Notes: a model not told the origin generated them from the sequence alone. A stretch of DNA of 64,000 nucleotides from Patescibacteria group bacterium (GCA_026417895.1 JAOACJ010000016.1:20015-84014); one strand, 5' to 3'. Numbered from the stretch's first letter, positions 12,301-58,063 are shown. Numbers and translations are program-made.

Positions 12301-12703
12301 TAACCAAACCGCAAATCATTTTGGAAAAATTGACTAAAACGGCCATGAGCAAAACCGGAGCGAGAAGGGTTTTATAAGAATACTTTTCAATTTTCAAAAC
12401 CGTAGCAAAGGCAATAACTAAGAGCATCAAGATAAAAAACATATTGGCCAAATCACGAAGAATCTCCCAGCCTTTATTAACGGCACTTGTTCTAAGAAAA
12501 TTATTGTATTGGGCAATGCCGGTAATCCAATCAATAGTCCAGGTAACAAAAATACCCAAAAATCTAGCAATTGTCTCAAAAATTTTTGAAATGGCATCTT
12601 CAATAAAGCCAGCGAAGGTCGGTTGAACAATTAAAAAAATCCCTGTCAAAACAAAAATCAGACAGCCAAAAGTCAGCCAATTTTTTTTCTTTTTTAAATT
12701 CAT
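9362..12703 (-). CDS. VirB6/TrbL-like polytopic membrane protein with large C-terminal soluble, coiled-coil-rich domain
   Basis: 1113 aa. At least six hydrophobic helices in the first 330 aa or so, with Trp/Phe-rich loops as in TrbL/VirB6 pore proteins. A long Lys/Glu-rich helical C-terminal region follows. Located downstream of the giant protein and upstream of VirB4. Confidence 0.55.
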   Translation of the reverse strand: MNLKKKKNWLTFGCLIFVLTGIFLIVQPTFAGFIEDAISKIFETIARFLGIFVTWTIDWITGIAQYNNFLRTSAVNKGWEILRDLANMFFILMLLVIAFATVLKIEKYSYKTLLAPVLLMAVLVNFSKMICGLVIDFAQVIMLSFVNAFKDIASGNLSEILGLKTFGDLGEEITVTVNDWNKVWAWILACIMMFVALVVTFIILALLIMRIIALWIMIVLSPLAFICFVIPGGQKYAKQWQDKFFNQVIVGPVLAFFLWFAFYAVQQGNLNPTTGMGLQPGKVNVGPTVSGQSNVLASFALGIGMLIGALVAAQQLGVAGASLAGKGISFLQKSATKAAKWTARRLEGLKDRTMRAFRPVTTDLAAAIVKTPLALLTKGGKGVADVWKGWAEKASVTPIPAFVKKTAAKFAKLKGEKDLTVTEGMDLLKGAVSEQDWQSIENLKSRLGTNGGWTTDEKNQIKKIVESSNLETTQKEKLKDNIDKDIKTIEGLKNEQVVEKINEIVGALRSMLTRKGLSEKEINAQLGAFNQSGIKRRIEEIMRAGGAPQKEVQDLIDQFLGKMSQRRLPGAEKLPQKKSFTDQEKEQIEILLSKHIPIFTPLSKAELARFSGGVRGGVKYELDQIKKAHQADPNLTAISQSFEQIENIIDPHLKVGQISLTDRRKVKEQIGSILEQLMKENKLSEQEGASLKTKLLTQIELIPPKAMTTEEVLKQIGKDAFKWAAEKITLPLSYVAATLEATPDIPIFDLDALLKDIQNFNARRTRKREADRLGKLHDLMNLWVSWGKDQTDFKGNEIMRRVLEEKEELQNKTLGETHATLNELESALKGNDMPRANAALMILAENNDLNELFKGDWVEKFTPYLKKFLAQDYLGKTVEVFNEKTGKTEPVTITPEKIEELIRTAKTKGEVNPVFIREMVKNISLMAAKDEGVAAKIANMIGMISLEHGAPHMGYAISRLNPVRGKLEFSPFRMYIDQKGNFDITLSQETINEIVGKVKNMSQRMMYQRAHPGLFATEDMYGNMRGLNPLNIAFLVNAEKSFFERPNEMRDDVISKLTASLEFQKDFNNLIAQMMAQPYKFISPYLPTIQDVLKQVEAMKAYMARLKAARFVT

Positions 12704-12740
12704 TTGTTTTTTATCTATTTTTTTATCTTTTATCTATGTT

Positions 12741-15700: not shown

Positions 15701-18700
15701 GTTCAGTCAAAACTTCTGGTGTCTCTGTCGAAACTAAGGTACATTGAGCACCGCTACCTTCACCAGTTTGTTTTTGACATCTTAAGAAATAGTCACAAAT
15801 TTCTAAAAATCGTTGTTGATTCTCCTGCCAAACATATCTTTTTCCTGCACAATAAAGCCATTCACCGCAAACACGATCGCGACGGACTTTAAGAATTAAA
15901 TTAGTGTCATTAGTATTTTGGCCTAAAGCATAACAGTAACGGCAATAATCGGTATTGGCAAAATTAGAATTTGTACAATTATCATCAGAATTAACAGGAT
16001 TTCCTTGTCCATCTACTGGCCAAGGTTTTTTCGTACAATCAATTGGCGAAACAAGTCGGTGCTGATTAGCCTCACTTTTAGCATAAGTGGCAATAGAATT
16101 ATAAATGGCACTTGGATCATTTTGGGCTTTAAATAAAACACAGCCTTCTTTTAAAGAAACCTGGCCACGACAAGAAGCTTTATCTAATTGATTGTTGTCT
16201 AAATAGTAATAAGGATCTAAAGGTTTAAATTCAATATCATCAAAATAAACTTCGCCAAAAGCCTCACAACATCTCCAAGGACAATTGGGACAATTTTGGA
16301 TGGTGGTACAATCGCCAGCGTTTGTCTTAGAACAGCCACCATGCCAATAAGCCGGAGCTAGAAGGGGAATAATTTTAATTTCTTCAATGGCTAAATTTTT
16401 CGGATTTAAAGGACCTCCCGCCACGACTCTTAAAGACCTTTTTTGCCAACTAGTAATGGTCGTTGAAGCATCAATGCTAGCCCCGATTTCATAACCATGT
16501 TCATAATTCCAAGGCCAATGGTTTAGATTGTCACCCCAGGGGTTTCCGCCATTTTTAATCAAAAAAGCAATACATTCTTTAAGATTGCCACGGTTAAATT
16601 TACATTTGGGCTGACCGGAAATATTACATTGATTATTACTCCAATTTCCGCCAACCCAACTACAGCACGATTGAGAAGAACCACAATGATTTTTATATTC
16701 TTGCCAATCTTGACACTCTTCGGTTTGACAACCATTTAATTGAGTTACACCTCGCCAGCCTTCGTATTTTAAATTCACATGCCCAGATGGATAAGAAAGG
16801 TGAGAGGTAGAAACAACCTTGACTTTAAAATTCAAAACAAAACTTTTTTGATTTTTATGAGGTATTTCAACAATCTGAGAGGCGGCGTATATTTTTCGCG
16901 TGTCTGCACCCACAGTATGTGGCGTATCGTTAGCTATTTTAAGTGATTTACTGGCGCCGTCCCAACTCACAGTAGATGAATTGCCGCTGTAGCCGTAAGA
17001 CCAATTTGGGGCTGGCCCCTGACCACTACTTCCACTACCAATTTCAAAATCACCATTCTGGACATAATTAGTCACGCCGGCCGTTCTTAGTGGTTCAATA
17101 TATTCTGTACAACCAGCAAATCTTTCTTCACATTCACCAACCAAGCCTTGATAGCCGCTTTCCTCGGAAAATTTAATGCCATAAGTCACCCCATCCGGTA
17201 AATAATTCGTATAGCAAGGCTGATCAGTGCCTTTCTTAAACCAGCCGGTTCTGTATTCACTGCCAATCGGCACTTTTTCTCGCCAAACACAAATTTTTTC
17301 ACCAGGATCTTTGAAATAAACTTTGCCCGCCGCGGCTTGTTCAAACTCTTCACAGTTTTGCTGATGATAACGACAGAGAATTGGTCGACGGGTATATAAA
17401 TCAGGGTTATTTTTTAAATAAAAATCTGTCCAGGAAATTGGCTCACCTTGAGAAAGGTTGGGTAAACCAAATTTCTGACAACCTTTATCGCCAGCCGGAC
17501 AGGCTTTGGTCTGATCAACAACTAAATAGGTTAATTGATCAGCTGGGACTAAAACATTATCTTTTGGCTCGTCGGGATCAGTCAAGTTAAATGTTTCTGA
17601 AAATGGTGAGGTGGAGTTTTTTGTCTCAATTAAAGCTTCGCAGCCAATTTTGATTTCCGGACAGAGTTTAGAAAATGATCTAAAGAAATGAGATTGATTG
17701 GCTCGGTCTCTGTATTCAGCACAACCTAAATGATAGCCAGGCGCAGAAGCGCCAGTTAAATCCTGATCACAAACAGTTGGTGTTTGCCAAGAATTTTTAA
17801 TAGCAAAGATATTTTGTCGGACTTCTTTTAAGGTGATGTTGTCGAGATAGAAGGGAGAAGAAGATAATATTACTAATCTTTCATCATTAGCAACCTCTCG
17901 CTGGAAATAAACTGGTCCGACAGTGAATGAATACCACTCACCAGTAGTCAAAGCAGGCAGAGAAGGGAAGTCTATGTTATTGTCATTGCCTCTAAATCGT
18001 ATGGTAAGAGTGGTGGAATTATTACTGGCTCTTTTTACCCAGAAGGAAAGTAAATACGACCTTCCTTTTTGGACTAAATCCTGAACTGGCCTAGAGACAG
18101 AATTATTATTGTTGGCAACTCTCATTGACCGACCGCCAAAATAGATTGATTCCGAAGAAAGTTCACCGTCGATCCAGGGTTCAACGGTTAAACTTTCAAA
18201 ATCATCTTCAAAAAGAATTCTTAGATTATTAGCCGCATTGCCTTGATACTCACGACAACCAACATTTACCGAAGAACATCTTTCTCCTTCTGCTGGAATA
18301 GCCATATAGGTACAGATTCCATTATTAAATTCAACTCCGTTTAAAGCAAGACCACCTTGAGTGCTCGTCGGGCAATAACCGCTGATCACGGTTGTCGTCT
18401 TTCTTAGGGGCACACAAGTCTCGGAACAGGTAATAGTATTTTTATAGAGTTTATAAGAAACATGGCCATTAGCATCATAAAATTCTTTACAATGAGGATT
18501 GGTCCGAGCATCTTGAGAATTTTGACACCTGCCCCAAAGGGCTTGAGCATTGTTAGAAGACAACATTTCGTCTGGCTCAAAACCATTAGTTGTTGTCTTG
18601 GCTAAAAGATAATATCTTTTTAATTGATAACCTGTCGTCTCTGAACCAATCCAGGTATAGAAGTATTGACACTCAGCTCTTGGTTTTTGACAGGGTCTGA

Positions 18701-21700
18701 GATAAGAATAGTATTCTCTTCCTTCACCACCGCGATTGACGACATCTAAATTTGTAAATTCTTCACAACCAACTTCGGAGGCCGGACAGATTCGAACCGT
18801 CCGTGGAATAAAATAAGCATCTTCTTCACTATAAAAATGCGTTGGTTTTTGTTTAAAGACTTCATAGCCAACACACTCTCTTGGACAACGATCAGTATCT
18901 CTCGCCACGGCTGGCAGATAGGGCCCACCTAAAACTGGTGTATATTTTTCACAACCAACTTCATCTTGTTGACAAGCTAAAGCATAATCAGCACAGGCAT
19001 GATCATCGTCATTGGTAATTAAATTTCCATTGTTATCGCGGTTGTAACATTTCATCCAATCTGGCGCCTTTTTTAAATAAATTTTATTCGTGCTGGCATA
19101 AGATTTATAAGATGAGAGTGAGCCAACTTCTAATTGTAAATCATCAAGATAAATGCCTGTTCCATTAACAGCAATTTCTAAATCAATAATTTTTTTATTA
19201 TTTGGAGCGATAAAATCTGTTGAAACCCTTTGCCAAGGTGTATTTTTAGAAATAGGAATAATTTTTGTAACGCTATTGTTAATCTTGACTTGAATTTCTC
19301 GATCATTACTTTGATCTTTATTTTTCACCCAGAAAGAAAGGGTATATTTTGTCCCTGGTAAAAGAGAAATATCAACGTTGTCAGTGGAAGCCAACTCTAC
19401 TTTACCGCTACCAGTAAATTTAGCCGAAACTTTACCGGATTTAGCTTCGGCTTCATCAACAAGAAATTGACCACTGGTTATTTGCCAACCCTTCACTAAA
19501 ATAGTCGGGGTCGTAGTCGTACTTGTTTCAGAATAATCTTCAAAGCTCGAATTGGGTAATAAATTGGTGCCTAAATTTTCTTTGGTCCGGATAAATTCGG
19601 AACAACCCTCAGAAGTAGCCGGGCAGGTTTCAACAAATTTATTAAAGAAGATGGTGTTAAAGGGATCAGACACAGAACGGGGACTACCAACTGATCCGTT
19701 TGGCTGGATATTTAAAGATTGGTTCGGTTCAGTACAAATCCAACCACCTGCCCCTTCGGCAAAGTCTTTATTCCATCTCTGACAATACCACTGACAACCA
19801 ACCGAGTTCGCATCGCAGTCACCAAAATCTAAAGTATTTTTTAACCAGGCAAATCTTTGATTATCTTTAGTTCGGGTATAAAGTTGACAAGTATTATAAT
19901 AAGCCGGACATTGAGTGCCGGCCAAGCGCCAAATATTTTTTTCGCGGGTACAATAGCCGTAAGTATGACAGGTGCCATCTTCATTTTCGCCAACACAATC
20001 CTTCATCTCTATACAAGTCTCTTGGCGTTCATTAGAAGCAGGCAAGGGAATAGCCGAATAAGCCATTAAATTACATTGCATTGAGGGTAATTTCAAAACC
20101 CAATTCGGATCAACTAAATGACAGAAAGGTGAAGCCGAAACAAGACATTGTCCATCTTTTTTACAACAGTTAGCACTTGAGTCCCAACTACCTATACTTC
20201 CTTCACATTTTTTTTCTGTCGTATTTGACTTCGGGTCCCCTTGGACATAAATTGTACAATCGCCATCAGAACTAACTTTGTCAAAACCTTCAACAATTTG
20301 AGCCAAAGTAAACTTGGCATCGCCAAAATCACCCCGGCTAATTTTCTCAGCAGCAATTTCTAAGCCTAAAGGAATAACTCGTGCCCGACGAAGTTTTTTT
20401 AGGTTGGTTAAAGAATAACGAGAGGAAAAATCACGCGCCCCATCAGTCAGACCATAACTACCGACATACCAGTTACCATGTAAATAATTTTTCTCAATTG
20501 CTTCTTTAATAGTTAAATTTTCTTCAATAGCCCGGGCAAAACCGCCGTCAATGACGCAATTATAAGGCAAAGCATATTTTGTTTCCGTTGGACAAGCTGC
20601 AAATTCCTCTAAAAGATTTATCTCACCAGATGGTTTTTTAAAGCTTACAGTTTTTAAATCAGCATAAATGGCCTCAATTTTTTCTTGGGTAGGAGAAGCC
20701 GGAATCCCACCCTCCCAACTTGTTCGACCACTTGGACTAGCTTCAGGATTAAGACCTTCTTTTTGAAATAACCTTTCAAGAAATTTAGAAAAAAATGTCT
20801 GAATAAATGTATTTGCCACATCAGCAACCAAAACACCAGTGTAAACTTTAAGTGACGCTTTCCCTTCAGCAATCATCTGTCGAGCTCTTTCTTCGGTTAA
20901 ACCAGCTGGTAAAAGCGCTTTACCAGAAATTTTAGAGGTAACTGACTGAAATTGGCCCTGAAGAGATTGGAAAAATTTATCCGCACCAACTTTTTCAGCC
21001 GCCTTACTTAAAATACCTGATTTGAGACTCATGGCCACGCCAAGATCACTTCCTTCCGGCGTGAAGGTTTTTTGAATATCTTCTAAAATGTTCAAGTCTG
21101 GTGAGGGAGTTCCTTTTTCCACTGCTTCTCTTGCCTCATCAACCATTTTTTCTAAAGTGGTTGCCCATTCAGAGAGTTGAGAGGCATAATTTTGTGCCCT
21201 TTTAATTGCTTCAAAACAATAGCTATAATTATTTTGACATTGAGTAGCATTATTAATACCTGGACAAGCACCGTTATAGCAATTAGGGTTTTGACAAAAT
21301 TCTTCTTGTGATTTATTAAGACAACGAACCGGTGCCTCAATTGGTCTGTATCCATCACTGGTCCATTTTCTTCCCAACCACCAGTTGAGACTTGTCTGAA
21401 AAGTTGGTGGTCCTTGAGTAATGGCTTTCAACCTTTCTTTTATAGTGGAGAGACTATTAAGTACACCGGAAATATTCGGCGGACCTATCTTTTTTGATTC
21501 TTGTAGATACTTATCCCACTCAGTTAAAAAGAGCTGCTGATGTCCAGAAAGTTGATCCGCAATATTGATTAAATTACTTTTGTTAACATCGTAAAGTTTC
21601 GTATCAATCCTAATCGCATTTTTAATCTTAACCTGAACTTGGGGCGGCTGACCTGGAACATATTCGACATTCACATAACCTTTCAATCCTTCTTTATACT

Positions 21701-22256
21701 GAGCAATGAGTTTTTCTTTCGCCTCTCTTATCCTTTCTTTCATCTTCGAAATAGGGCAACGTGCCTCATATTCAAAAGGAATTTTTGGCGGCTTTACAAA
21801 TAAGAGAATATTCAGTTTTATTGTCGGATCAATCGGATCACAAAGGCTTTGGAGACCAAAACCTTTAGTCGCCACTTCATCTAAAAGATCACCGACAACA
21901 GAATCAGCCATTTTGTTCCAGTATTCTTTGTCGGTAAAAAACATTGGTTTGCCAGCTTTACCGCCAGTGGCCAGCCAAGTAGCTGATTCGGTGACAAATT
22001 TTTGGGCAAAACCTTCAAGAAAGCTTTTATAAAGAATGGCTATTACCTGATATTTTACCTTGTCATAAATCCTAATAGCTTGACTTTTTATCCATTCTAA
22101 AACCCGGGGAATATCACCGACGGTTGTGGAAGCTCCTTGAGCATATGCTGGTTTCGGCCAAAATAAAAGAGGAGTAAGTAGGGAGAAAATCATTACTCCG
22201 AGTAAAAAACTGATGATAATTTTTCGAAGATGTTTTTTCATTTTCCCTTTTTTCAA
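12741..22256 (-). CDS. giant secreted cysteine-rich surface protein with three CBM_4_9-like carbohydrate-binding modules
   Basis: 3171-aa uninterrupted ORF. N-terminal signal peptide (…LLTPLLFWPKPAYAQG), very many Cys in CxxC / CC / C-x-n-C arrangements, no TM after the signal. Three modules carry the CBM_4_9 signature (N..FE…W…G..Y.LSFWVK…YLDD): around LLPGTKYTLSFWVKNKDQ…IYLDDLQLEV, QKGRSYLLSFWVKRASNN…FYLDNITLKEV and NGDFEIGSG…VYFDDIEFKP. Confidence 0.8.
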   Translation of the reverse strand: MKKGKMKKHLRKIIISFLLGVMIFSLLTPLLFWPKPAYAQGASTTVGDIPRVLEWIKSQAIRIYDKVKYQVIAILYKSFLEGFAQKFVTESATWLATGGKAGKPMFFTDKEYWNKMADSVVGDLLDEVATKGFGLQSLCDPIDPTIKLNILLFVKPPKIPFEYEARCPISKMKERIREAKEKLIAQYKEGLKGYVNVEYVPGQPPQVQVKIKNAIRIDTKLYDVNKSNLINIADQLSGHQQLFLTEWDKYLQESKKIGPPNISGVLNSLSTIKERLKAITQGPPTFQTSLNWWLGRKWTSDGYRPIEAPVRCLNKSQEEFCQNPNCYNGACPGINNATQCQNNYSYCFEAIKRAQNYASQLSEWATTLEKMVDEAREAVEKGTPSPDLNILEDIQKTFTPEGSDLGVAMSLKSGILSKAAEKVGADKFFQSLQGQFQSVTSKISGKALLPAGLTEERARQMIAEGKASLKVYTGVLVADVANTFIQTFFSKFLERLFQKEGLNPEASPSGRTSWEGGIPASPTQEKIEAIYADLKTVSFKKPSGEINLLEEFAACPTETKYALPYNCVIDGGFARAIEENLTIKEAIEKNYLHGNWYVGSYGLTDGARDFSSRYSLTNLKKLRRARVIPLGLEIAAEKISRGDFGDAKFTLAQIVEGFDKVSSDGDCTIYVQGDPKSNTTEKKCEGSIGSWDSSANCCKKDGQCLVSASPFCHLVDPNWVLKLPSMQCNLMAYSAIPLPASNERQETCIEMKDCVGENEDGTCHTYGYCTREKNIWRLAGTQCPAYYNTCQLYTRTKDNQRFAWLKNTLDFGDCDANSVGCQWYCQRWNKDFAEGAGGWICTEPNQSLNIQPNGSVGSPRSVSDPFNTIFFNKFVETCPATSEGCSEFIRTKENLGTNLLPNSSFEDYSETSTTTTPTILVKGWQITSGQFLVDEAEAKSGKVSAKFTGSGKVELASTDNVDISLLPGTKYTLSFWVKNKDQSNDREIQVKINNSVTKIIPISKNTPWQRVSTDFIAPNNKKIIDLEIAVNGTGIYLDDLQLEVGSLSSYKSYASTNKIYLKKAPDWMKCYNRDNNGNLITNDDDHACADYALACQQDEVGCEKYTPVLGGPYLPAVARDTDRCPRECVGYEVFKQKPTHFYSEEDAYFIPRTVRICPASEVGCEEFTNLDVVNRGGEGREYYSYLRPCQKPRAECQYFYTWIGSETTGYQLKRYYLLAKTTTNGFEPDEMLSSNNAQALWGRCQNSQDARTNPHCKEFYDANGHVSYKLYKNTITCSETCVPLRKTTTVISGYCPTSTQGGLALNGVEFNNGICTYMAIPAEGERCSSVNVGCREYQGNAANNLRILFEDDFESLTVEPWIDGELSSESIYFGGRSMRVANNNNSVSRPVQDLVQKGRSYLLSFWVKRASNNSTTLTIRFRGNDNNIDFPSLPALTTGEWYSFTVGPVYFQREVANDERLVILSSSPFYLDNITLKEVRQNIFAIKNSWQTPTVCDQDLTGASAPGYHLGCAEYRDRANQSHFFRSFSKLCPEIKIGCEALIETKNSTSPFSETFNLTDPDEPKDNVLVPADQLTYLVVDQTKACPAGDKGCQKFGLPNLSQGEPISWTDFYLKNNPDLYTRRPILCRYHQQNCEEFEQAAAGKVYFKDPGEKICVWREKVPIGSEYRTGWFKKGTDQPCYTNYLPDGVTYGIKFSEESGYQGLVGECEERFAGCTEYIEPLRTAGVTNYVQNGDFEIGSGSSGQGPAPNWSYGYSGNSSTVSWDGASKSLKIANDTPHTVGADTRKIYAASQIVEIPHKNQKSFVLNFKVKVVSTSHLSYPSGHVNLKYEGWRGVTQLNGCQTEECQDWQEYKNHCGSSQSCCSWVGGNWSNNQCNISGQPKCKFNRGNLKECIAFLIKNGGNPWGDNLNHWPWNYEHGYEIGASIDASTTITSWQKRSLRVVAGGPLNPKNLAIEEIKIIPLLAPAYWHGGCSKTNAGDCTTIQNCPNCPWRCCEAFGEVYFDDIEFKPLDPYYYLDNNQLDKASCRGQVSLKEGCVLFKAQNDPSAIYNSIATYAKSEANQHRLVSPIDCTKKPWPVDGQGNPVNSDDNCTNSNFANTDYCRYCYALGQNTNDTNLILKVRRDRVCGEWLYCAGKRYVWQENQQRFLEICDYFLRCQKQTGEGSGAQCTLVSTETPEVLTEQKYKNRDFGWTGMDYSGYSLYNFYPVEMLRPKNYPNGYALSYLSGTTDYGVGNRTCTRNEDCPKGQVCYQSKCVVSPTCKLYPENTSPFSREVEGTYRGLNLCTERGGNNCLCSYRKAESVLGEPTYYFNLETDVESIKVCTQAENPQDLGKCCSPPCPNGMAVAFREDCTRTDEGRKNNQGKCEPMKKITDYIGLAGYCLEPDLEKPKEIQACLTWFPGEVETGLDSYNQVRSAGYFPSSDRRWYGYERYTRPAEISGFAPTFFPLGFNLTSSFPGQRLGGNWGCFADRLIQPLYLGGDYGNKCSEYTNYGETDLGYCFLAEGGEGTILQAKYIPYLERKIKREEIQKIIVKAKFRWENTTCSDLNTVDCSSSNKCCGPFDLELGPNNFKRAAYLHATHQNSSGYVCKSNGTCPVGGACLADECPDKNKSCLFIQAEFDQENYLRNFHLEFNEDGSGWGGAIIYTINLHLKSGANLPIKAYLAPASEINVAEGASCWRKDSNNNSRGCCQDYLGFSSEELKRDGSVTRQWACDGTDKEMASCFRGDQRKGSPSQAIYLYSSSYFAKSGNNFYYLDRKIYEYMIDRIEIDWKIDKSNPGDCKFGADYQGTIILPYEDPATKEKKYEKEVTGKGNGEARLFVQTIFDQKEGELKGFKVEFNDDDAGHGAAALTGIRIILKEAANKLVKINDKPYLPTVVNTNLVKLKPGTDVPYGNLTDILDYSYECLPRGATGFQGTMPKKYIIDSKGEVCHLYSGGIYDSDAVIKKLFPKSYAWSYLDVNTLSYLPGNIANNWDSRSDTSLHPTDRSPQIQSVNFSTGVPAGGTVGKITIGNQESGNILISGKTYTATLRFYAWADGAYMPVREVVVDWGDGFRSGSSNMITKNRKPVCKKGTDGLPLSFGDDPDACLNQYWEFVHTYLCTNPNGCSYQPKVYVKDNWGWCAHSASTPTTPYAGDFSCLDPDGNPGTSTPANFGVPYDGQIILNP

Positions 22257-27166: not shown

Positions 27167-28357
27167 ATGAGATCTGAACTATTTCTTAAAATTAAAATCA
27201 ATTTTATCCTTCGACTGGTTAATCTTTTTAAAAAGATCGGCTTTTTCATCTTTTGGTTTTTAGAAAAAACCCTTCAGGGCTTTACAAATTTTCTTTTCTT
27301 TTTGGCAAAAATTATTTTGTCTCTTTTCTTTTCCTTATATTTAAAAACAAAGAAATTAATTAAAGAGGTCTCTTTGAATTTCCACTACCAGGATAAGCTA
27401 TTTTCGTTTGTCTCTCACTTTCAGTCAAAAATAATTTTAATTTTTTTGATTTTTGTTTTTGTTTTTATTATCTCTGAACAGAAAATAATACCCGAAAAAA
27501 TGTTGTCTGTTCAGGCTTCTGTTTCTTTCGCCAAAGAAACAGAAGAGAATGAGGCTACTTCGCCTGATTTTAAAATCGCAACAGTTGAAGATGAGGAATC
27601 GGTTTTAATACCAAATTTTACCTTTGAACGAGACTTTGTGCCAACGCGAACAGAAATAGAAAAATATATTGTCCAACCTGGCGACACAATTTCTTCTATT
27701 GCCGAAGATTTTGAGGTTAGTGTTAATACAATTTTATGGGAAAATAAATTAACCCCTCGTTCAATTATTAGGCCAGGCCAGATCTTGAAAATTTTACCTA
27801 TTTCTGGTGTCTCTCATCAAGTCAAAAGAGGAGAAACAATTGAAAAAATTGCTCGTTATTATAAAGCAAATCAAGAAGATATTATTAGCTTTAATGATTT
27901 AGAAGAAAAACCATTAGTTGCTGGCGAAATCATTATTATTCCTGAAGGTAAAATTCCACCACCAGTTATACCAAGAACAGTGACAAGGTCTGTTCGAGAC
28001 AAATTATGGCCCGGTCAATTAGGTCAAAGAACAAGAGAGGGAACTAATTGTCGAGATTTTTATCCTGGACAATGTACCTGGTATGTGGCACAAAAGTACT
28101 GTATTCCCTGGTCTGGTCATGCCAAAAGTTGGTTAGCTAATGCAAAAAAATTTGGCTTTTCTACTGGCCTTGAACCAGTCAAGGGTGCCATTGTTTCACT
28201 CCGTGAAACTTGGTATGGCCATGTCGGTATTGTTGAAGAAGTGGGCGAAGATTCAATTATTATTTCGGAAATGAATCATTTGGGTCCTTGGAAGGTTAAT
28301 AAAAGAGAAATAAAAAAAGATGATTGGCGAATCAATGGTTATATCTATTTAAAATAA
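27167..28357 (+). CDS. LysM-LysM-CHAP peptidoglycan hydrolase with N-terminal membrane anchor
   Basis: Two LysM repeats (VQPGDTISSIAEDFEVSVNTILWENKL; HQVKRGETIEKIARYYKANQEDIISFNDL). C-terminal CHAP domain with catalytic Cys context GQCTWYVAQ and His GHVGIVEEV. Confidence 0.8.
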   Translation: MRSELFLKIKINFILRLVNLFKKIGFFIFWFLEKTLQGFTNFLFFLAKIILSLFFSLYLKTKKLIKEVSLNFHYQDKLFSFVSHFQSKIILIFLIFVFVFIISEQKIIPEKMLSVQASVSFAKETEENEATSPDFKIATVEDEESVLIPNFTFERDFVPTRTEIEKYIVQPGDTISSIAEDFEVSVNTILWENKLTPRSIIRPGQILKILPISGVSHQVKRGETIEKIARYYKANQEDIISFNDLEEKPLVAGEIIIIPEGKIPPPVIPRTVTRSVRDKLWPGQLGQRTREGTNCRDFYPGQCTWYVAQKYCIPWSGHAKSWLANAKKFGFSTGLEPVKGAIVSLRETWYGHVGIVEEVGEDSIIISEMNHLGPWKVNKREIKKDDWRINGYIYLK

Positions 28358-30764: not shown

Positions 30765-30857
30765 CTAAATATTTAAGATAGAAGAAAGATAACACTTTAT
30801 AAATAAGAGGTCAAGAAAAGTTATCCACAGGTAAGACTATACTATTTAGATTAGAGT

Positions 30858-40682: not shown

Positions 40683-41813
40683 CTAAGCTTTAATCGGCAT
40701 AATCAGATAAAGAAAGTTTTCTTCAGGAAATGGTTTAATGACACTTGGTGAACTGTCGTCAATTATTTCAAAAGAAAATTCTGGCGTTGTGAAACTGGTT
40801 AGACCGTCTAAAAGATAGTGATAGTTAAAGGCCAAACTGTTTTTTTCACCAGAAACTTCACCTTTGACCTCAACCCTACTTTCTCCAACTTGATTGTTTA
40901 AAGAAGAGAGGATAATTGCTGATTTATTAGGAAGAAATTCAAAAGAAATATCATTGATACCGGTTTTGGAAAAGGGAGCAATCCCTTTGATAGTTTTAAT
41001 TAATAATTCTCTTTCTAGAATTGCTTTTGTTCTAAAATTTCTAGGAATAATTTCTTGATAGTTAGGAAATTCGGCTTGAATAATTCGAGAAATAAGTTTA
41101 GTTTCTTGAAAATAAAACAGAATTTGATTTTCAGAAAGAAAAATTTCTACTTCGTTTTCTTTCTTTTCAGCCGACGAATTAAAAATTCTTAAAAATTCTT
41201 GAAGGGTTTTGAGTGGAACAATGATTTTTTTAGACCTTTGGCTGGTTGTTGATTTTCCTAGAGTTATCTTTTTTTCTGCTAATCGATAACTGTCAGTTCC
41301 AACAATGGTTAAGGTTTGTGATTCAGGAGAAAAAGAAAATAAGAGGCCACTAATTTCTGGTCTGGTTTCTGACGGATTGCAAGAAGAGATGGTTTGCTGA
41401 ATTGATTTTTTTAAATCTTGCCCGGAAAGGAGGTATTTTTCTTCTTTTTCTATTTTAGGCAAAATTGGAAAATCTTCACTTGATAGTCCTTTTATTTTTG
41501 TTTCACCGTTTTTATATTTTAAAAAAAGTTCATCTTTAGTTACTTCAATTGTTACCGGCTCGTTAGGTAAAAAATTTACATGGGAAAAAAGCAAAGAAGC
41601 TGGAACAGTGAAAGAACCTTCTTTTTCTATTTTTCCACCAATAAAAGTTTCAATAGCTATTTCTAAATCTGTTGAAACAAGATAAAGTAACCCTTTTTCT
41701 ATTTTTAAAAGGACGTTGCCTAAAATTGGTAAAGACGATTTACTTATACTAGCTAGGTGAAAAACCTTTTCTAACCCTTTAATTAAATTTTTTTGTAAGA
41801 AAGTTCCTTTCAT
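40683..41813 (-). CDS. dnaN: DNA polymerase III beta sliding clamp
   Basis: N-terminal LPILGNVLLKIEKGLLYLVSTDLEIAIE pattern typical of DnaN domain 1; three-domain length 376 aa. Confidence 0.85.
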   Translation of the reverse strand: MKGTFLQKNLIKGLEKVFHLASISKSSLPILGNVLLKIEKGLLYLVSTDLEIAIETFIGGKIEKEGSFTVPASLLFSHVNFLPNEPVTIEVTKDELFLKYKNGETKIKGLSSEDFPILPKIEKEEKYLLSGQDLKKSIQQTISSCNPSETRPEISGLLFSFSPESQTLTIVGTDSYRLAEKKITLGKSTTSQRSKKIIVPLKTLQEFLRIFNSSAEKKENEVEIFLSENQILFYFQETKLISRIIQAEFPNYQEIIPRNFRTKAILERELLIKTIKGIAPFSKTGINDISFEFLPNKSAIILSSLNNQVGESRVEVKGEVSGEKNSLAFNYHYLLDGLTSFTTPEFSFEIIDDSSPSVIKPFPEENFLYLIMPIKA

Positions 41814-44739: not shown

Positions 44740-45825
44740 TTATTTTTGAGTAACTTCTTTGAGGCTTAAACCTAAACGATGATCTTCTGACTCTAAAGAA
44801 ATGATTTTAAAGGAGAAAATCTGGCCAACCTTAATCTTTTCTTTCATTATCTCTTCAGGAATTTCAGAAATATGAGCTAGGCCATAAATATCTTTTTCAA
44901 CCTCAACCAAAAATCCATAAGGTCTGATTTTAGAAATTTTTCCTTGAACAAGATCACCAACTTTATATTTTTTTTCAATCATTTTCCAAGGATTTTCTTG
45001 GGTTCTTTTTAGTGAAAGAGAAATTTTTGAATCATCAACAGAAAGAACTACGGCTTTAACTCGATCACCAACTTTGACTACCTCTTCTATTTTTTCTATT
45101 TTTTGCCAAGCAATTTCTGAAATATGGACCAAGCCTTTAATTTGATCATCTAACTCGACAAAAACACCAAAAGGAGAGATACCAACAACCCTTCCTTCAA
45201 CGATGTCACCAACTTTATATTTTTTAAACAAAGACGATTTTTTTTCTAATTCAACCTCTTTTTCCGAAAAAATAACTTTTTTATTCGTTTCATCACTACT
45301 AATTATTTTTACTTCTAAAGACTGACCGACGATTTCTTTTAATTTTTCTAAAATTTTATTTTTATCCCCATCAACGACTTGAGGAAAGTGTTGGCTAGAA
45401 AGTTGTGAAGAAGGGATAAAACCAGAGATTTTTTTATATTGAACAATTAATCCACCTCGATTGGCGTCGATTACCTTTACAGAAATAGTCCTTCCTTCTT
45501 CTTGGATTTTTTTAATCATTTCAGAAGTTTTTAATTTAGCCCCAGCCCGAAAAGAAAGTTCAACTTCTCCTCTTTCATTTTCTTCGTCAATAACTAAAGC
45601 TGTTGCCTCATCACCAACCTTTAAATTTAAATAGTCTCCCAATTCATCTTGAAGTTCAGCCCCTCGGACAACACCAGTAGCCAGACCTCCTAGATCAAGC
45701 CAGACCTCATTTTTTCCAATTTTCAAGACACGACCAGTCACCATTTGGCCAACTTCAAATTTTTTTATTTTCTTTAATAAGTTTTTCATAACCTTTAATT
45801 TATAAATAATAACATATTTTGACAA
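44740..45825 (-). CDS. rpsA: 30S ribosomal protein S1 (four S1 domains)
   Basis: Repeated G..V.G.V..I...G.FV.L…G..H.SEI S1-domain blocks; 361 aa. Confidence 0.8.
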   Translation of the reverse strand: MSKYVIIYKLKVMKNLLKKIKKFEVGQMVTGRVLKIGKNEVWLDLGGLATGVVRGAELQDELGDYLNLKVGDEATALVIDEENERGEVELSFRAGAKLKTSEMIKKIQEEGRTISVKVIDANRGGLIVQYKKISGFIPSSQLSSQHFPQVVDGDKNKILEKLKEIVGQSLEVKIISSDETNKKVIFSEKEVELEKKSSLFKKYKVGDIVEGRVVGISPFGVFVELDDQIKGLVHISEIAWQKIEKIEEVVKVGDRVKAVVLSVDDSKISLSLKRTQENPWKMIEKKYKVGDLVQGKISKIRPYGFLVEVEKDIYGLAHISEIPEEIMKEKIKVGQIFSFKIISLESEDHRLGLSLKEVTQK

Positions 45826-45847
45826 ATAAGTAAAGAAATGTTAAAAT
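45819..45847 (+). promoter_or_regulatory. sigma70-like promoter, TTGACA-17nt-TAAAAT, heading the long plus-strand gene block
   Basis: TTGACA at 45819-24, 17-nt spacer, TAAAAT at 45842-47; about 70 nt upstream of the 45920 start. Confidence 0.45.
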
Positions 45848-45868
45848 AATTTTTGGTTTCGATTTTCT

Positions 45869-45887
45869 GGTTCCTAATTTTGGAACC
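45869..45887. promoter_or_regulatory. perfect inverted repeat GGTTCC-n7-GGAACC downstream of the promoter (operator or 5'-UTR hairpin candidate)
   Basis: GGTTCCtaattttGGAACC seen directly, roughly +15 to +35 relative to the predicted TSS. Confidence 0.35.
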
Positions 45888-45919
45888 AATAACTAAAGAC
45901 TATTAACTATAAATTTATT

Positions 45920-46540
45920 ATGCAAATCATTTGGTACGGTGAAAGTTGTTTTAAAATTATAACTAACGAATTAAGTATTTTAACTGACCCCTTTTCGCCA
46001 GCTGCCCAGGGGTTGAAAAATCCTAGACTGACTTCAGAGATTGTTGTCTTCTCTAACCCTGCGACTTTAAAAAAGAAAGAGGAAGAAAAAAACAATTTTT
46101 TTCTCATTTCTATGCCTGGCGAATATGAAATAAAAAACATTTTTATTTTCAGCTTGCCCCACCAGGAAAATAATCTTTTAAAATTAATTTATAAAATAGA
46201 AACAGAGGAAATAAAAATTTGTTTTTGGGGAGAAATTTCGAAAGAGCCAGCCAGTGAAGAATTAGAAAAATTAGGAGAAGTGGATGTTCTTCTCATTTCC
46301 TTTGCCCCCTCGCTGTCTTTAAAAGAAATTGTCAAAACTATAAAAGAAATCCAACCAAAAATTGTTATTCCCCATTCTTTAAAGATTAAAGAAAATAAAA
46401 TAGATCTAAAAATCATTGAAAAATTTACTCAAGAAATGGGTTGGCGAAAATTTGAAAAGACTGCCAAACTGAAGATAAGAAAAAAAGACCTTTCCCTTGG
46501 AAAAACCGGCTTAATTATTCTTGAACCAGTGGTTAATTAA
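45920..46540 (+). CDS. MBL-fold metal-dependent hydrolase (UPF0173-like)
   Basis: N-terminal MQIIWYGESCFKIITNELSILTDPF and C-terminal …VVIPHS resemble the small metallo-beta-lactamase-fold hydrolases; 206 aa. Confidence 0.5.
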   Translation: MQIIWYGESCFKIITNELSILTDPFSPAAQGLKNPRLTSEIVVFSNPATLKKKEEEKNNFFLISMPGEYEIKNIFIFSLPHQENNLLKLIYKIETEEIKICFWGEISKEPASEELEKLGEVDVLLISFAPSLSLKEIVKTIKEIQPKIVIPHSLKIKENKIDLKIIEKFTQEMGWRKFEKTAKLKIRKKDLSLGKTGLIILEPVVN

Positions 46541-54048: not shown

Positions 54049-55434
54049 TTGGTTTTAAATTTTATGAAAATAGTTCGTATTCTAATTCTTGTTTTCATTA
54101 TTTTCTCTTTTCTTTTTGGTTGGGAATTAGGAGCTCAAATACCCGGTCAACCTCAACCTAGAAAGCCAATCTTGCCACCCGTTAATCTTTCTTGGTGGGT
54201 GGTCTGGGAACAACCGAGTGATTTTACTGACTTAATTAATACTTTCCGCACTCTCTATCCCTATGTTAATATTGAAGTCAAAAAATTTCGTTACGAAGAA
54301 TATCGTGAGGCTTTAATTGAGGCTTGGGCCCGGGACGTCGGACCAGATATTTTTTCTCTCCCCAATACCTGGCTTAGAGAATATCAGGAGTGGATTGTTC
54401 CGATGCCAGCCAAAGTTGCTTTAAAAAAAGAAATTCAAAGTGGTCCTTCTTGTGCTCGAAAAACAAAAATCATTACCGAAGAAAAACCCTTACTTACTCT
54501 TAAAGATTTAAAAGAAAAATTTGTGGGTCAGGTAGAAAAAGATGTTTTAATTCAGGGTCGAATTGCTGGTCTACCTCTTTCTTTTGATACCCTAGTTCTT
54601 TATTACAATCGTGATCTTTTAGATGCAGCTGGTATTCCTGAACCCCCAAAAACCTGGGAAGAGTTTATGGAGGCAGTGATTAAGACAACGTTGATAGATA
54701 AACAAAAAAATATTTTTCAAGCGGGTGCAGCTTTAGGGACAGCCAATAATATCGAAAGAGCAGTTGACCTTCTTTCTCTTTTGATGATGCAAAGTGGCAT
54801 CAATATGACCAATCCTCAGGGTTTGGTTACCTTTAATCAAGCCTGGCCAGACGATCCATCTTATTTTCCAGCCGAAGAAGCTTTGAGATTTTACACTGAT
54901 TTTGCTGATAAAAATAAAGAAGTTTATACTTGGCATAAAGAGATGCCCTCGAATTTAGAAATGTTTATCCAAGGGAAATTGGTTTTCTTTTTTGGTTATG
55001 CCTATCACTTACCTTTAATTAAAGCACAGGCCCCGAACCTGAATTTTGGCTTAACCAAAATGCCCCAGAGAAGTGGAACGCTTAAAGAAATAAACTTTGC
55101 TCATTATCCAGTTCAAGTCGTCTCCCGAAAAAGCAAAAATATAGAAATGGCATGGTTTTTTCTGAATTGGGCAAGCCAGAACCCAACTCCTTATTTAAAT
55201 CGCGCCAAAAAGCCAACCGCCCTACGAAGTTTGATTGCCATCCAATTGCAGGATCCAGATTTAGAAGTTTTTGCTTCACAGGCTTTAACAGCTTCCTCTT
55301 GGTATCAAGGGAAAAACCCACTTTTGGTGGAAGAAGCTTTTAAGGAAATGATTGATGATATCAACGAAGGCAGAAAGTCTTATCTAGAGGCAATCAATTT
55401 CGCTGTCCAAAAAATTAATCAACAAATAAAATGA
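54049..55434 (+). CDS. extracellular solute-binding protein (ABC-type, family 1-like), orphan
   Basis: Signal/anchor N-terminus, about 460 aa, with blocks resembling sugar-binding SBPs (…TWEEFMEAV…). No permease or ATPase genes are adjacent. Confidence 0.5.
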   Translation: MVLNFMKIVRILILVFIIFSFLFGWELGAQIPGQPQPRKPILPPVNLSWWVVWEQPSDFTDLINTFRTLYPYVNIEVKKFRYEEYREALIEAWARDVGPDIFSLPNTWLREYQEWIVPMPAKVALKKEIQSGPSCARKTKIITEEKPLLTLKDLKEKFVGQVEKDVLIQGRIAGLPLSFDTLVLYYNRDLLDAAGIPEPPKTWEEFMEAVIKTTLIDKQKNIFQAGAALGTANNIERAVDLLSLLMMQSGINMTNPQGLVTFNQAWPDDPSYFPAEEALRFYTDFADKNKEVYTWHKEMPSNLEMFIQGKLVFFFGYAYHLPLIKAQAPNLNFGLTKMPQRSGTLKEINFAHYPVQVVSRKSKNIEMAWFFLNWASQNPTPYLNRAKKPTALRSLIAIQLQDPDLEVFASQALTASSWYQGKNPLLVEEAFKEMIDDINEGRKSYLEAINFAVQKINQQIK

Positions 55435-56297
55435 AATTTTTTAATTTTCACATTCACCAAAATAGCCAAAGTTTCATTTTCAAAATCTTTTTTCTCTTTT
55501 CTCTTCTTTCTCTTTTCCTGTCTATTTTTTCGCCGGTTTTGGCAGAAAACACCACCTCCTCAACTTCAATGGTCACTGTTTATACGTGTGATACAAGCGG
55601 TTGTCGTCCTGGAGGATTGATGAAGGCCGTCTCTCTAAAATGTGCTTGTTGTGGCGATTGTGATTTAAACGATATTCTTAAAATCGTTGTGGGAATCTCT
55701 CGTCTGATTCTTCGTTGGGTTGGTGTTTTGGCTCTTATCTTTTTTATTATTGGTGGTATAATCTGGTTGACCTCCAGTGGTAATCCAGAACAGGTAAAAA
55801 GAGGGAAACAAATCTTGGTTGGTACTCTTATCGGTCTTTGTATTGTTTTTTTTGCCTGGCAAATTGTTAATATCATTATTTGCGGACTCTCTCAAGGTAA
55901 ACTTGAAGAATCTTGCACCCTCTTTAATCGGAAATGGTATGTCTTTCCGGGCGAAAAAGAAAAAAAATGTCAGATGGAAGAAAGACCAAATGCAGCTTGT
56001 TTTACCAACTGGCCTGAATGTCCATCTTTTGCGGCGATGGGTCCCAATCCCATTTGGAATTCAGATTGTAAGAAAGAGGAGGTAAAGACCATCCAGCAAA
56101 AATTAGCTCAACTTTGTTGTTACGGTACAGGTGTAGCAACTATTGATGGTTGTTTTGGCCCGGAAACAAGAAATGCAGTCAAATTATTCTGTCAAAAGAA
56201 TAGTGGTTGTGGGACTGGTAATGATCAAGGTTATGTTGATCAAACGACCTATAATTTAATTACCACCGGCACTGACCTTCAACTATGTCAAGAATAA
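55431..56297 (+). CDS. VirB2/TrbC-like pilin-family protein fused to a Cys-rich region and a C-terminal peptidoglycan-binding (PG_binding_1-like) domain
   Basis: Signal peptide …SPVLAENTT. Pilin core ILKIVVGISRLILRWVGVLALIFFIIGGIIWLTSSGNPEQVKRGKQILVGTLIGLCIVFFAWQIV. C-terminal VKTIQQKLAQLCCYGTGVATIDGCFGPETRNAVKLFCQ matches the PG_binding_1 pattern. Confidence 0.6.
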   Translation: MKFFNFHIHQNSQSFIFKIFFLFSLLSLFLSIFSPVLAENTTSSTSMVTVYTCDTSGCRPGGLMKAVSLKCACCGDCDLNDILKIVVGISRLILRWVGVLALIFFIIGGIIWLTSSGNPEQVKRGKQILVGTLIGLCIVFFAWQIVNIIICGLSQGKLEESCTLFNRKWYVFPGEKEKKCQMEERPNAACFTNWPECPSFAAMGPNPIWNSDCKKEEVKTIQQKLAQLCCYGTGVATIDGCFGPETRNAVKLFCQKNSGCGTGNDQGYVDQTTYNLITTGTDLQLCQE

Positions 56298-56301
56298 ATA
56301 T

Positions 56302-56658
56302 ATGTCATTCTTTTATAAAAATTTTCTTCTTCTTGCTACTTTCTACTTTCTATTTTCTAGTTTTATTTTGCCGGTTTTAGCTGAAGAAACAACCGAACTC
56401 CCTAATCCCCTTGGCACCGGCATGACCACGGAAAAAATTGTTGCCAATGTCATTAAACTGATTTTAGGTTTAGTTGGTGTGTTGGCTTTGATTATGTTTA
56501 TTTACGGTGGTATTACTTGGATGACTTCGGGTGGCAATGTTGAAGCGGTTAAAAGAGGAAAAAATACTTTAGTTTGGGCGGTTTTAGGTTTAGCTGTTGT
56601 TTTCTTTGCCTACAGTTTGGTCAATTTTATTTTAACCAAAGTGCTTGGCGTAAGGTAA
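56302..56658 (+). CDS. VirB2/TrbC-like pilin-family protein (paralog 2)
   Basis: Signal peptide …LPVLAEETT; core VIKLILGLVGVLALIMFIYGGITWMTSGGNVEAVKRGKNTLVWAVLGLAVVFFAYSLV; 118 aa. Confidence 0.6.
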   Translation: MSFFYKNFLLLATFYFLFSSFILPVLAEETTELPNPLGTGMTTEKIVANVIKLILGLVGVLALIMFIYGGITWMTSGGNVEAVKRGKNTLVWAVLGLAVVFFAYSLVNFILTKVLGVR

Positions 56659-56693
56659 AAACTTTTTAAAATAGACTGTGGATAAATCTTTCT

Positions 56694-56720
56694 TGACTTT
56701 TTCGTTTTTGGAAGTAAAAT
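56694..56720 (+). promoter_or_regulatory. possible promoter inside the pilin array (TTGACT-15nt-TAAAAT; spacer short)
   Basis: TTGACT at 56694-99 and TAAAAT at 56715-20; strong RBS GGAGGG before the paralog-3 start. Confidence 0.3.
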
Positions 56721-56755
56721 AAAACCATCACCATTCTTTTAAAGGTCGTCATTAA

Positions 56756-56778
56756 CTAGACACAAACCTTGTGTTTAG
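56756..56778. promoter_or_regulatory. imperfect inverted repeat CTAGACACAA-acc-TTGTGTTTAG between candidate promoter and RBS of pilin paralog 3
   Basis: Seen directly; 10-nt arms with 1 mismatch. Confidence 0.3.
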
Positions 56779-56806
56779 TTCGGAGGGAAAATAAAATTGG
56801 AAAAAT

Positions 56807-57172
56807 ATGAGAAAAATTCTTTTCACTTTATCAACCTTAACTTTACTGGCTTTACCGGGCGTCACCTTTGCTCAAGTCAATGAATGGTTGAATAACATGG
56901 CTTTACAGAACATTCTGCCGACCAATGTTGATCTACCAGGTCTTGTTTTCAGCATTATTCGCTACATTCTTGGTTTCTTAGGGGTGGTGGCCGTTGTTGT
57001 CATTATTATTGGTGGTTTTATGTGGATGACAGCGGCTGGTAATGAAGAAAAGGTGGCTAAAGCCAAAAAGGTTTTAGTTCAAGGTTTGATTGGTTTAGTC
57101 ATTGTTATGTTAGCCTTTGCCATCGCCACCTTTGTCATGAGTATGATTCGAACCAGCACAGCTGGGGCCTAA
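56807..57172 (+). CDS. VirB2/TrbC-like pilin-family protein (paralog 3)
   Basis: Signal peptide …VTFAQVNE; core IIRYILGFLGVVAVVVIIIGGFMWMTAAGNEEKVAKAKKVLVQGLIGLVIVMLAFAIA; 121 aa. Confidence 0.6.
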   Translation: MRKILFTLSTLTLLALPGVTFAQVNEWLNNMALQNILPTNVDLPGLVFSIIRYILGFLGVVAVVVIIIGGFMWMTAAGNEEKVAKAKKVLVQGLIGLVIVMLAFAIATFVMSMIRTSTAGA

Positions 57173-57216
57173 TCTAATTTTTTTAGGGAAGAGAAATTAT
57201 TTTTTAAATTTCTTTT

Positions 57217-57612
57217 ATGAAAAAAGGAAATTTCTTTTGCCCTTCCTTTATTTTTCTTTTTCTCTTATTTCTTTTCCTTTCATTTCAATTTTCTCTTGCC
57301 CAAGTTGACCCTCAAGTTTTGGAGGGTGAAAATTATTTAGATGAATTAGGCCAAGGAACAGATGTTTTAGAAAAAAGAGATTTAATTCTCCTTATTTTCT
57401 CGATTGTGCGCTATCTACTTGGTCTGATTGGTGTCGCGGCTGTCATAGTTATTATTTCGGCTGGTTATTCTTGGATGACAGCGGCTGGTAACGAGGAAAA
57501 AGTGAAAAAAGCCAAAGCTGTTTTACAAAATGGTATCATTGGTTTGGTCGTTATTATGATTGCCTATGCCTTGACGATTTTTGTTTTTAAACTCATTCGC
57601 GGCGAATTATAA
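57217..57612 (+). CDS. VirB2/TrbC-like pilin-family protein (paralog 4)
   Basis: Signal peptide …FSLAQVDPQ; core IVRYLLGLIGVAAVIVIISAGYSWMTAAGNEEKVKKAKAVLQNGIIGLVVIMIAYALT; 131 aa. Confidence 0.6.
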   Translation: MKKGNFFCPSFIFLFLLFLFLSFQFSLAQVDPQVLEGENYLDELGQGTDVLEKRDLILLIFSIVRYLLGLIGVAAVIVIISAGYSWMTAAGNEEKVKKAKAVLQNGIIGLVVIMIAYALTIFVFKLIRGEL

Positions 57613-57616
57613 TTTT

Positions 57617-58063
57617 ATGAAAATAAAGAAACAAAAAAAAGAGAGAATGTTTAAAAAAATTTTTTGCTGGTTAATTTTTTTATTTTTACTTTTTTCAGCT
57701 ATCAAACCAGCTTTAAGTCAAGTCAGACCCGAAACTTTAAATCTTTTAGAGAATGTAGCTGGTCAGGCTGGTTATAAAGCGCCCCAAGATCCAGTCAGAA
57801 TAGTTATTCGAGTCATTAATTTTCTTCTTAATTTAGTCGGTGTCTTTTTTATTTTAATGATTATTTACGGCGGTTTAATGTGGATGACCGGTGGAGCAAC
57901 TGATTTTTTGTGGTTGGGCGGTGCAGGGCAAGAAGAAAAGATAAAAAAGGCCAGAACACTTATTCGAGATGCCATTATTGGCCTAGCCATTATTATTTTA
58001 TCTAAGGTTATTTATTATTTTATTGTAGAAAGATTTAAAGAGGCGGGAGAAGAAGTGGAATGA
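57617..58063 (+). CDS. VirB2/TrbC-like pilin-family protein (paralog 5, divergent loop)
   Basis: Start moved to the Met at 57617 (MKIKKQKKERMF…) to avoid a 32-nt overlap. Signal peptide …KPALSQVRPE; core VINFLLNLVGVFFILMIIYGGLMWMTGGATDFLWLGGAGQEEKIKKARTLIRDAIIGLAIIIL. Confidence 0.55.
   Translation: MKIKKQKKERMFKKIFCWLIFLFLLFSAIKPALSQVRPETLNLLENVAGQAGYKAPQDPVRIVIRVINFLLNLVGVFFILMIIYGGLMWMTGGATDFLWLGGAGQEEKIKKARTLIRDAIIGLAIIILSKVIYYFIVERFKEAGEEVE

Follow-up and report, generated by a model that had tools for sequence, protein, structure and literature searches.

What does a Patescibacteria chromosome do with five divergent pilin-like genes set in a row at a distance from any secretion machine they might serve? 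The question is raised by a 64,000-nucleotide (nt) stretch of a low-GC Patescibacteria chromosome (Patescibacteria group bacterium, GCA_026417895.1, JAOACJ010000016.1:20015-84014; guanine plus cytosine (GC) content 34.6%), hereafter the window, in which five consecutive plus-strand open reading frames (ORFs) at 55431-58063 encode proteins with a signal peptide and a two-helix hairpin, while a sixth, minus-strand copy stands at the end of a type IV secretion system (T4SS) operon. Combining profile searches, structure prediction and comparison with related contigs, we show that the hairpins belong to the T4SS_pilin family (PF18895). We favor, with moderate confidence, the view that the five genes make up a conserved operon on the chromosome and encode VirB2-like pilins of a monoderm-type T4SS, and that these pilins would assemble heteromerically and occupy distinct, non-redundant positions.

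The six paralogs stand out clearly from the rest of the window, where no other ORF combines a signal peptide and two-helix hairpin with a W-M-T-x-x-G-N...K-K loop. A clade profile built from paralogs 2-4 and database homologues, paralog 5 not included, gave exactly six matches among 478 six-frame window segments (E from 1e-46 to 2.7e-16), the best segment outside the six reaching E=0.62, a result far beyond chance. Paralog 1 (55431-56297, +; 288 amino acids, aa) consists of a signal peptide, a Cys-rich exposed N-segment, a VirB2-like hairpin, a Cys-containing flank and a C-terminal PG_binding_1 domain, and is followed by paralog 2 (56302-56658, +; 118 aa), the most canonical VirB2/TrbC-like copy. 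Paralog 3 (56807-57172, +; 121 aa) is the first gene past a conserved promoter-like block, and its nearest paralog is paralog 4 (57217-57612, +; 131 aa); these two have a local identity of 62%, against 26-42% otherwise within the array. Paralog 5 (57617-58063, +) measures 148 aa from ATG 57617 or 138 aa from ATG 57647, and one of these starts is more likely than the TTG at 57581 (57581-58063, +; 160 aa), because the latter overlaps paralog 4 by 32 nt. Paralog 6 (1-941, -), the last gene seen of a minus-strand PrgI-TrsD-VirB4 operon, starts at 941 and runs through 313 stop-free codons past the window edge; these are the N-terminal 313 of the 419 aa known from an identical NCBI protein (P0086), and comprise the hairpin, an INPALV motif and part of a long C-terminal extension. 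Paralogs 1, 2 and 6 each match a protein of an NCBI 'Patescibacteria group bacterium' metagenome-assembled genome (MAG) at 100% identity, and the NCBI records of paralogs 2 and 6 bear the name 'pilin'.

All six proteins are built alike. A-x-A-like sites and hydropathy segments are found in every copy, the signal regions ending, in order and with the slash marking the putative cleavage point, in VLA/E, VLA/E, TFA/Q, SLA/Q, ALS/Q and VLA/Q, and two hydrophobic helices follow. Alignment of the six cores reveals a common helix-joining loop, W-[ML]-T-x-x-G-N-x-E-x-[VI]-x-[KR]-[AG]-[KR], with invariant columns G109, W112, G117, G135 and L136. Consistent with this, the AlphaFold2 model of paralog 2 has a signal helix and a long hairpin (H43-74/H80-114), with a predicted local distance difference test (pLDDT) score of 83.5 overall and above 90 in the core. 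The first-pass annotation, made from the sequence alone, had read the region as five tandem pilin paralogs plus a sixth beside VirB4 at the end of the T4SS operon with a long C-terminal extension, all sharing signal peptide, hairpin and conserved loop; ORFs, profile, hydropathy and alignment bear out each of these points.

It had also proposed that these are T4SS pilins and suggested a Pfam search as the check. Against the PF18895 gathering cut-off of 26.6 bits, paralogs 1, 2, 3, 4 and 6 pass with 40.9, 45.6, 38.5, 34.2 and 43.1 bits, and T4SS_pilin is the top family for these five of the six, which supports the assignment to this family. For TrbC/VirB2 (PF04956, cut-off 27.9 bits), paralog 2 passes at 37.4 bits, paralogs 1, 3, 4 and 5 remain below at 10.9-18.1 bits, and paralog 6 has no match at E<=0.01. 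The NCBIfam model NF045849 (Mbov_0395, a pilin-like protein of Mycoplasma integrative and conjugative elements, ICEs) is passed by paralog 3 with 46.9 bits against a cut-off of 40, which ties the family to monoderm T4SSs; paralogs 1, 2, 4 and 6 score below that cut-off, at 22.7-32.6 bits, and paralog 5 has no match. An exhaustive profile search extended the family to 79,813 cluster representatives at E<=0.001. Searching PDB sequences with the pilin alignment brought up designed 'Pizza' propellers, which we set aside as spurious, being drawn in by a G-x-x-W-x-T-x-x-G-N motif.

The array is shared by relatives. Four related metagenomic contigs (L005, L007, L008 and L009) have the same gene order and exactly five pilin genes each, and in an all-against-all BLASTP of the window paralogs against the L005, L007 and L008/L009 pilins, every window paralog has its top score with the same-position gene in all three relatives. 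Paralog 1 scores 214, 175 and 151 bits at its own position against at most 87 elsewhere, and paralog 5 scores 206, 167 and 118 bits against at most 77; with a Ca. Magasanikbacteria MAG, positional matching is partial and covers positions 2 and 3 only. Nei-Gojobori ratios of nonsynonymous to synonymous substitution (dN/dS) span 0.12-0.47 in the pilins, as against 0.14-0.29 in the housekeeping neighbours, values that are approximate since dS is saturated at about 1-2. Paralog 3 and its L007 orthologue are 74% identical, with a dN/dS of 0.12, and at the protein level the conservation of paralogs 2, 3 and 5 matches that of ClpB, YidC and the neighbouring solute-binding protein (SBP). Per orthologue set, identity is 45-85% in helices and loop, 26-49% in the exposed N-segments and 6-33% in the C-tails. 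Positional orthology and purifying selection together argue that the paralogs are old and individually maintained: on this sequence evidence, the five are ancient, each kept by selection, and are neither recent duplicates nor shuffled cassettes. Their age and separate maintenance in turn favor fixed, distinct roles over antigenic variation. The array position shared by four related contigs, the position-by-position orthology and the dN/dS range are the new elements of this comparison.

The individual copies also differ in architecture. Paralog 1 matches PG_binding_1 (PF01471) at 27.7 bits, above the cut-off of 23, and its L007 orthologue P0078 does so at 24.1 bits. Its AlphaFold2 model has a hairpin at H79-114/H119-154 and three C-terminal helices, for which the best fold matches are the peptidoglycan (PG)-binding domains of 5bmq (prob 0.99, E=0.4), 7qvd and 1lbu, with E-values that taken alone are not significant; the matched domains belong to an L,D-transpeptidase, SltB2 and a Zn DD-peptidase. 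This C-terminal extension is absent from the L005 and L008 orthologues. In paralog 5 the loop between the helices is lengthened by 10 residues, GGATDFLWLG, an insertion already pointed out by the first-pass annotation; it is genuine and recurs in two of three positional orthologues, with L007_5 and L008_5 retaining it and L005_5 lacking it. The C-terminal extension in paralog 6 has a Cys-rich end and is predicted to be extracellular. In the subfamily to which this copy belongs, the INPALV motif after helix 2 is followed by variable long C-terminal parts, and relatives in other genomes of the candidate phyla radiation (CPR) continue from the hairpin into an SLT lytic transglycosylase (P0092) or an NlpC/P60 peptidase (P0095).

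Beyond these fusions, the best profile matches include single chains of 2-17 concatenated hairpins with no internal signal peptides, such as P0097 with 8 and P0100 with 17. These 'polypilins' could be true fusions, or artefacts in which tandem genes are read through in lineages that have recoded their stop codons. Such chains bear on how hairpins assemble, and we argue from them that different hairpins assemble side by side.

How might such a set of hairpins act? We suggest that Sec/YidC would export each product and signal peptidase I would cleave it behind [LF]-[AS], leaving it in the membrane as a hairpin whose two ends point outward and whose basic G-N-x-E-x-V-K-K-x-K loop lies in the cytoplasm. 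The VirB4 machine would then pull these hairpins out of the membrane and stack them as a pilus-like tube or stalk crossing the wall toward a host cell, with the loops lining the lumen of the stacked tube. Export, topology and VirB4-dependent extraction are modeled here on the known biology of VirB2/TraA pilins. What the sequence shows directly is the family, the architecture, T4SS genes on the same genome segment, conservation with positional orthology, purifying selection and the domain fusions; processing, topology, co-assembly, pilus formation and the assignment of roles we infer. Within this scheme, paralogs 3 and 4, behind their own promoter-like block, would provide the bulk subunits, with paralog 3 a candidate for the major one; paralogs 1 and 6, which bear domains that bind the wall or are large and external, would serve as base, tip or anchor subunits; and paralog 5, with its enlarged lumen-facing loop, would be a specialised subunit. 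With both ends facing out, paralog 1 would expose its PG-binding domain, and paralog 6 its extension, on the outside of the cell, an arrangement that is biologically sensible. We favor such a heteromeric, fixed-role assembly because the paralogs are individually conserved, because their architectures differ and because other genomes fuse hairpins.

Several observations weigh against this reading, among them the saturation of dS noted above. Paralog 5 fails the PF18895 cut-off at 18.4 bits, a shortfall we ascribe to its loop insertion; the clade profile recovers it at E=2.7e-24, and its insertion-free orthologue L005_5 has a precomputed PF18895 match. Foldseek comparison of the paralog 2 model with the PDB returned nothing at E<=0.001 and generic helical hairpins only, with ATP synthase subunit c as the best match (E=2.1), and VirB2, TraA and TrbC pilins were not retrieved by fold or sequence searches of solved structures; the fold is too small for fold comparison either to confirm or to deny VirB2 likeness. 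The array is not adjacent to T4SS genes, lying ~50 kb from the PrgI-VirB4 operon, rather than the 35 kb of the first-pass annotation, and ~43 kb from a VirB6-like candidate. No pilus has yet been observed for PF18895 proteins, and Gram-positive-type T4SSs normally lack pili (PMC12102498). Finally, the multi-hairpin chains and enzyme-fused hairpins may suit a membrane-embedded assembly better than an extruded filament.

This last point leads to the main rival, which we judge possible though rather unlikely: the hairpins may instead form a membrane-embedded or wall-spanning T4SS ring or channel, or serve as anchors for extracellular wall-binding, wall-cutting or adhesive domains. PG_binding_1 in paralog 1, and SLT or NlpC/P60 after the hairpin in relatives of paralog 6, speak for this; chains with up to 17 hairpins would be polytopic in the membrane; no pilus is known from monoderm T4SSs (PMC12102498); and the 'pilin-like' family whose cut-off paralog 3 passes comes from ICEs of Mycoplasma, which has no wall. 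Outward-facing ends, however, would make external fusions and concatenation compatible with a filament too, paralogs 2-4 are short and lack any additional domain that an anchor could hold, and the family is homologous to TrbC/VirB2, which are bona fide pilus subunits.

A more elaborate form of the heteromeric pilus or stalk, with fixed stoichiometry and the five paralogs as obligate partners, joins special features of the locus, and we consider it unlikely to hold as a whole. Here paralog 1 would be tethered to the wall, and a disulfide staple made by its flanking cysteines would replace head-to-tail cyclisation. VirB2/TrbC pilins are cyclised in this way, TraF acting on TrbC. In paralog 1 homologues C77 never varies, with C150 and C161 retained in 8/9; a Cys-rich segment precedes helix 1 and conserved cysteines follow helix 2. 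The lumen loop of paralog 5 would gate or line the channel, the ever-adjacent SBP riding on the structure would capture host-derived molecules, and a conserved DnaA-box promoter would tie expression of the bulk subunits to DnaA.

Could the paralogs instead be interchangeable pilins, expressed alternately to evade host defences or to match host strains? Such a repertoire, raised for CPR arrays by PMC12102498, would fit the divergence of the array paralogs and the fact that the exposed N-segments and tails vary most among orthologues, yet we regard it as improbable here. Copy number, order and per-position identity are kept across four diverged genomes, recent duplicates and signs of gene conversion are lacking, the dN/dS values are low, and the rate of evolution of paralogs 2, 3 and 5 is as low as that of their housekeeping neighbours. 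A PG-binding domain in one copy and a loop insertion in another mean that the copies are not interchangeable cassettes, and no invertible or switch-like element was seen, only the single conserved promoter-like block. The first-pass annotation had left the choice between antigenic variation and functional or major-minor diversification; positional orthologues and purifying selection agree with the latter and not with the former. It is most improbable that these are unrelated small membrane proteins (holin-like, or of a domain of unknown function, DUF) with a superficial pilin likeness, for although two-helix hairpins are structurally unspecific, as the generic Foldseek matches show, and weak sub-threshold matches to several DUF/membrane families exist, curated cut-offs are passed for T4SS_pilin by five of six copies and for TrbC/VirB2 by paralog 2, one copy lies inside the VirB4 operon, and the NCBI pipeline calls two of them pilin.

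The heteromeric reading has to be seen against what is known of such systems. The first-pass annotation presented the array as unusual; it is in fact a published, widespread Patescibacteria feature (PMC10633639, PMC12102498, PMC12857230), and ours is a real but ordinary further example of a partly annotated system. When PF04956 and PF18895 were run against 3,035 CPR genomes, 1,948 assemblies proved to encode VirB2-like pilins; arrays with 2-11 pilin genes apiece, 441 in all, came from 383 CPR assemblies and had a mean internal identity of 25% and a maximum of 54% (Quinonero-Coronel et al. 2025, PMC12102498). There an array means at least two pilin genes, in tandem or one non-pilin gene apart, of low mutual identity and in a genome with Patescibacteria-type VirB4; our array agrees in the respects tested, with five contiguous genes, low identities and VirB4, TrsD and PrgI in the window. 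A 2025 T4SS review highlights CPR pilin arrays and proposes a pilus or conduit (PMC12857230). In Southlakia epibionticum ML1, the pilin series of the T4SS cluster SEML1_0006-0019 is essential (Wang et al. 2023, PMC10633639), and only a few systems, the T4SS with its pilin series being one of them, have been shown to be essential to a Patescibacterium living as an epibiont (PMC10633639, PMC11665869).

Like the published Patescibacteria arrays, ours combines PF18895 membership (with PF04956 for paralog 2), tandem divergent pilins, a monoderm-type PrgI/TrsD/VirB4 set, no relaxase seen in the window and a chromosomal, probably origin-proximal position. In contrast to them, it stands ~50 kb off the T4SS operon, is locked to an SBP gene among housekeeping genes, and has one member with a PG-binding domain. 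Unlike Southlakia, a member of the Saccharibacteria, the window lineage is an unclassified Patescibacteria MAG, with the nearest SBP-pilin synteny in Ca. Magasanikbacteria. Signal peptide, two hydrophobic helices and a short basic loop are shared with Agrobacterium VirB2 and RP4 TrbC (PF04956), but those proteins are cyclised and work in diderm T4SSs with VirB5 and VirB7-10, partners not seen in the window. The Mbov_0395 family (NF045849) likewise has a small two-helix hairpin and a monoderm T4SS of mating-pair-formation class FATA (MPF-FATA), but by its family description is a DNA-transfer component of conjugative ICEs, whereas ours is a chromosomal array of several paralogs.

Several divergent virB2 copies in tandem also occur in the effector T4SSs of Bartonella and Anaplasma, where they are read as antigenic or host-range variants (cited in PMC12102498); in the window, orthology and purifying selection argue for fixed roles. 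For this lineage, the comparative case thus argues against the antigenic-variation suggestion of PMC12102498 and for a multi-subunit assembly. In addition, PG-binding, SLT and NlpC/P60 fusions may help to explain why many pilin-bearing CPR genomes lack a separate VirB1, as the SLT and NlpC/P60 hairpin fusions could supply the VirB1-like wall-cutting activity reported missing from most CPR T4SS loci.

The promoter-like block (56677-56720, +) lies within the 148-nt non-coding gap between paralogs 2 and 3 and reads, in order, TGTGGATAA, a 3-nt spacer, TTTC and TTGACT-16 nt-TAAAAT, a promoter-like match of 10/12. TGTGGATAA is the reverse complement of the DnaA-box consensus TTATCCACA, with a perfect match, and the composite motif TGTGGATAA-N2-3-TTTCTTGAC joins this DnaA-box sequence to a -35-like hexamer. 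The core of the block is invariant across four diverged loci, and the composite motif occurs once per related locus, always in the pilin 2-3 gap (L005 10361-10380, L006 3634-3653, L007 9263-9282, L008 10514-10534, L009 10541-10561). In the window it is seen twice against 0 expected, the second copy (30810-30829, -) lying between rnpA and a DksA/TraR zinc-finger gene that is followed by lspA. Consensus promoter and terminator scans gave no enrichment over shuffles, and it is the conservation analysis that makes the site credible. Nor does the window have an excess of DnaA boxes (14 matches against 15 expected at one mismatch), so that the one between pilins 2 and 3 does not belong to an oriC-like cluster. 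The block is a probable internal promoter for paralogs 3-5, with the predicted promoter itself at 56693-56720, and the composite motif is probably a conserved promoter, possibly DnaA-responsive.

Upstream of the pilins the gene order is gyrA, yidC, a small membrane protein, a ClpB-type ATPase, a sugar-nucleotidyl transferase and the SBP gene, and downstream lie glycosyltransferase genes on the opposite strand. The gyrA orthologue in L005 (609-3524) encodes 971 aa with weak intein/Hint matches, and the window gyrA encodes 815 aa with none. The extracellular SBP (54049-55434, +; SBP_bac_8 and SBP_bac_1) has a stop codon overlapping the start of paralog 1 by 4 nt (ATGA), an overlap repeated in L007, by which the two genes appear translationally coupled in the window. 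The SBP gene is directly upstream of the array in every locus (L001 8357-9730, L005 8147-9532, L007 6767-8149, L008 7974-9377). A scan of genome contigs with the SBP protein yielded one useful locus only, L001 of the distant Ca. Magasanikbacteria MAG, where a 36% identical SBP is followed by five pilin-domain genes, several of them with large Cys-rich extensions. Among the genes scanned on either side of the SBP, none was recognised as coding for an ABC permease or ATPase. A functional link between SBP and pilins is possible.

GC skew changes sign at ~45800-45950, and its cumulative minimum lies near 46 kb, where gene orientation diverges and where dnaN (40683-41813), gyrA, yidC and rnpA are close by. 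The array is probably ~10 kb from the replication origin, as judged from skew and gene content; neither a dnaA gene nor a DnaA-box cluster was found in the window. CPR T4SS genes have been reported as origin-proximal, with which the position of the array near the skew minimum agrees.

In the minus-strand operon that ends in paralog 6, a PrgI/VirB3-like gene (5069-5500, -; PF12666 PrgI, 35.8 bits) is followed by a TrsD-like VirB4 N-domain protein (4255-4932, -; sub-threshold NF041427 TrsD and VirB4-family matches) and the VirB4 ATPase (2336-4249, -; PF19044/PF12846, P-loop_TraG/AAA_10). Between VirB4 and paralog 6, at 951-2161 (-), are two small membrane-anchored proteins of 182 and 189 aa with one transmembrane segment each, for which profile and structure searches gave no family or solved-structure match; a VirB8-like role for the protein at 1592-2161 is a guess on our part. 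No relaxase or coupling protein was recognised among the window genes. Nor were VirB5 or VirB7-10 partners seen, or a TraF-like peptidase, the search for the last consisting of Pfam scans of neighbouring genes.

A possible extended VirB6-like channel subunit of 1113 aa lies at 9362-12703 (-). Its N-terminal third is polytopic, with ~6-7 hydrophobic segments in residues 1-320, and it scores 19.2 bits (E=0.0011) against PF04610 TrbL/VirB6, below the 25.9 cut-off, which weakly suggests a VirB6-like protein. Adjoining it near the T4SS operon (9362-22256, - for the pair) is a giant protein of 3171 aa with a CBM_4_9 carbohydrate-binding domain; the former may be a channel subunit and the latter a surface adhesin. 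Elsewhere in the window, at 27167-28357 (+), a secreted protein combines LysM with CHAP, a peptidoglycan-binding amidase/peptidase that could act on the host wall or on the cell's own.

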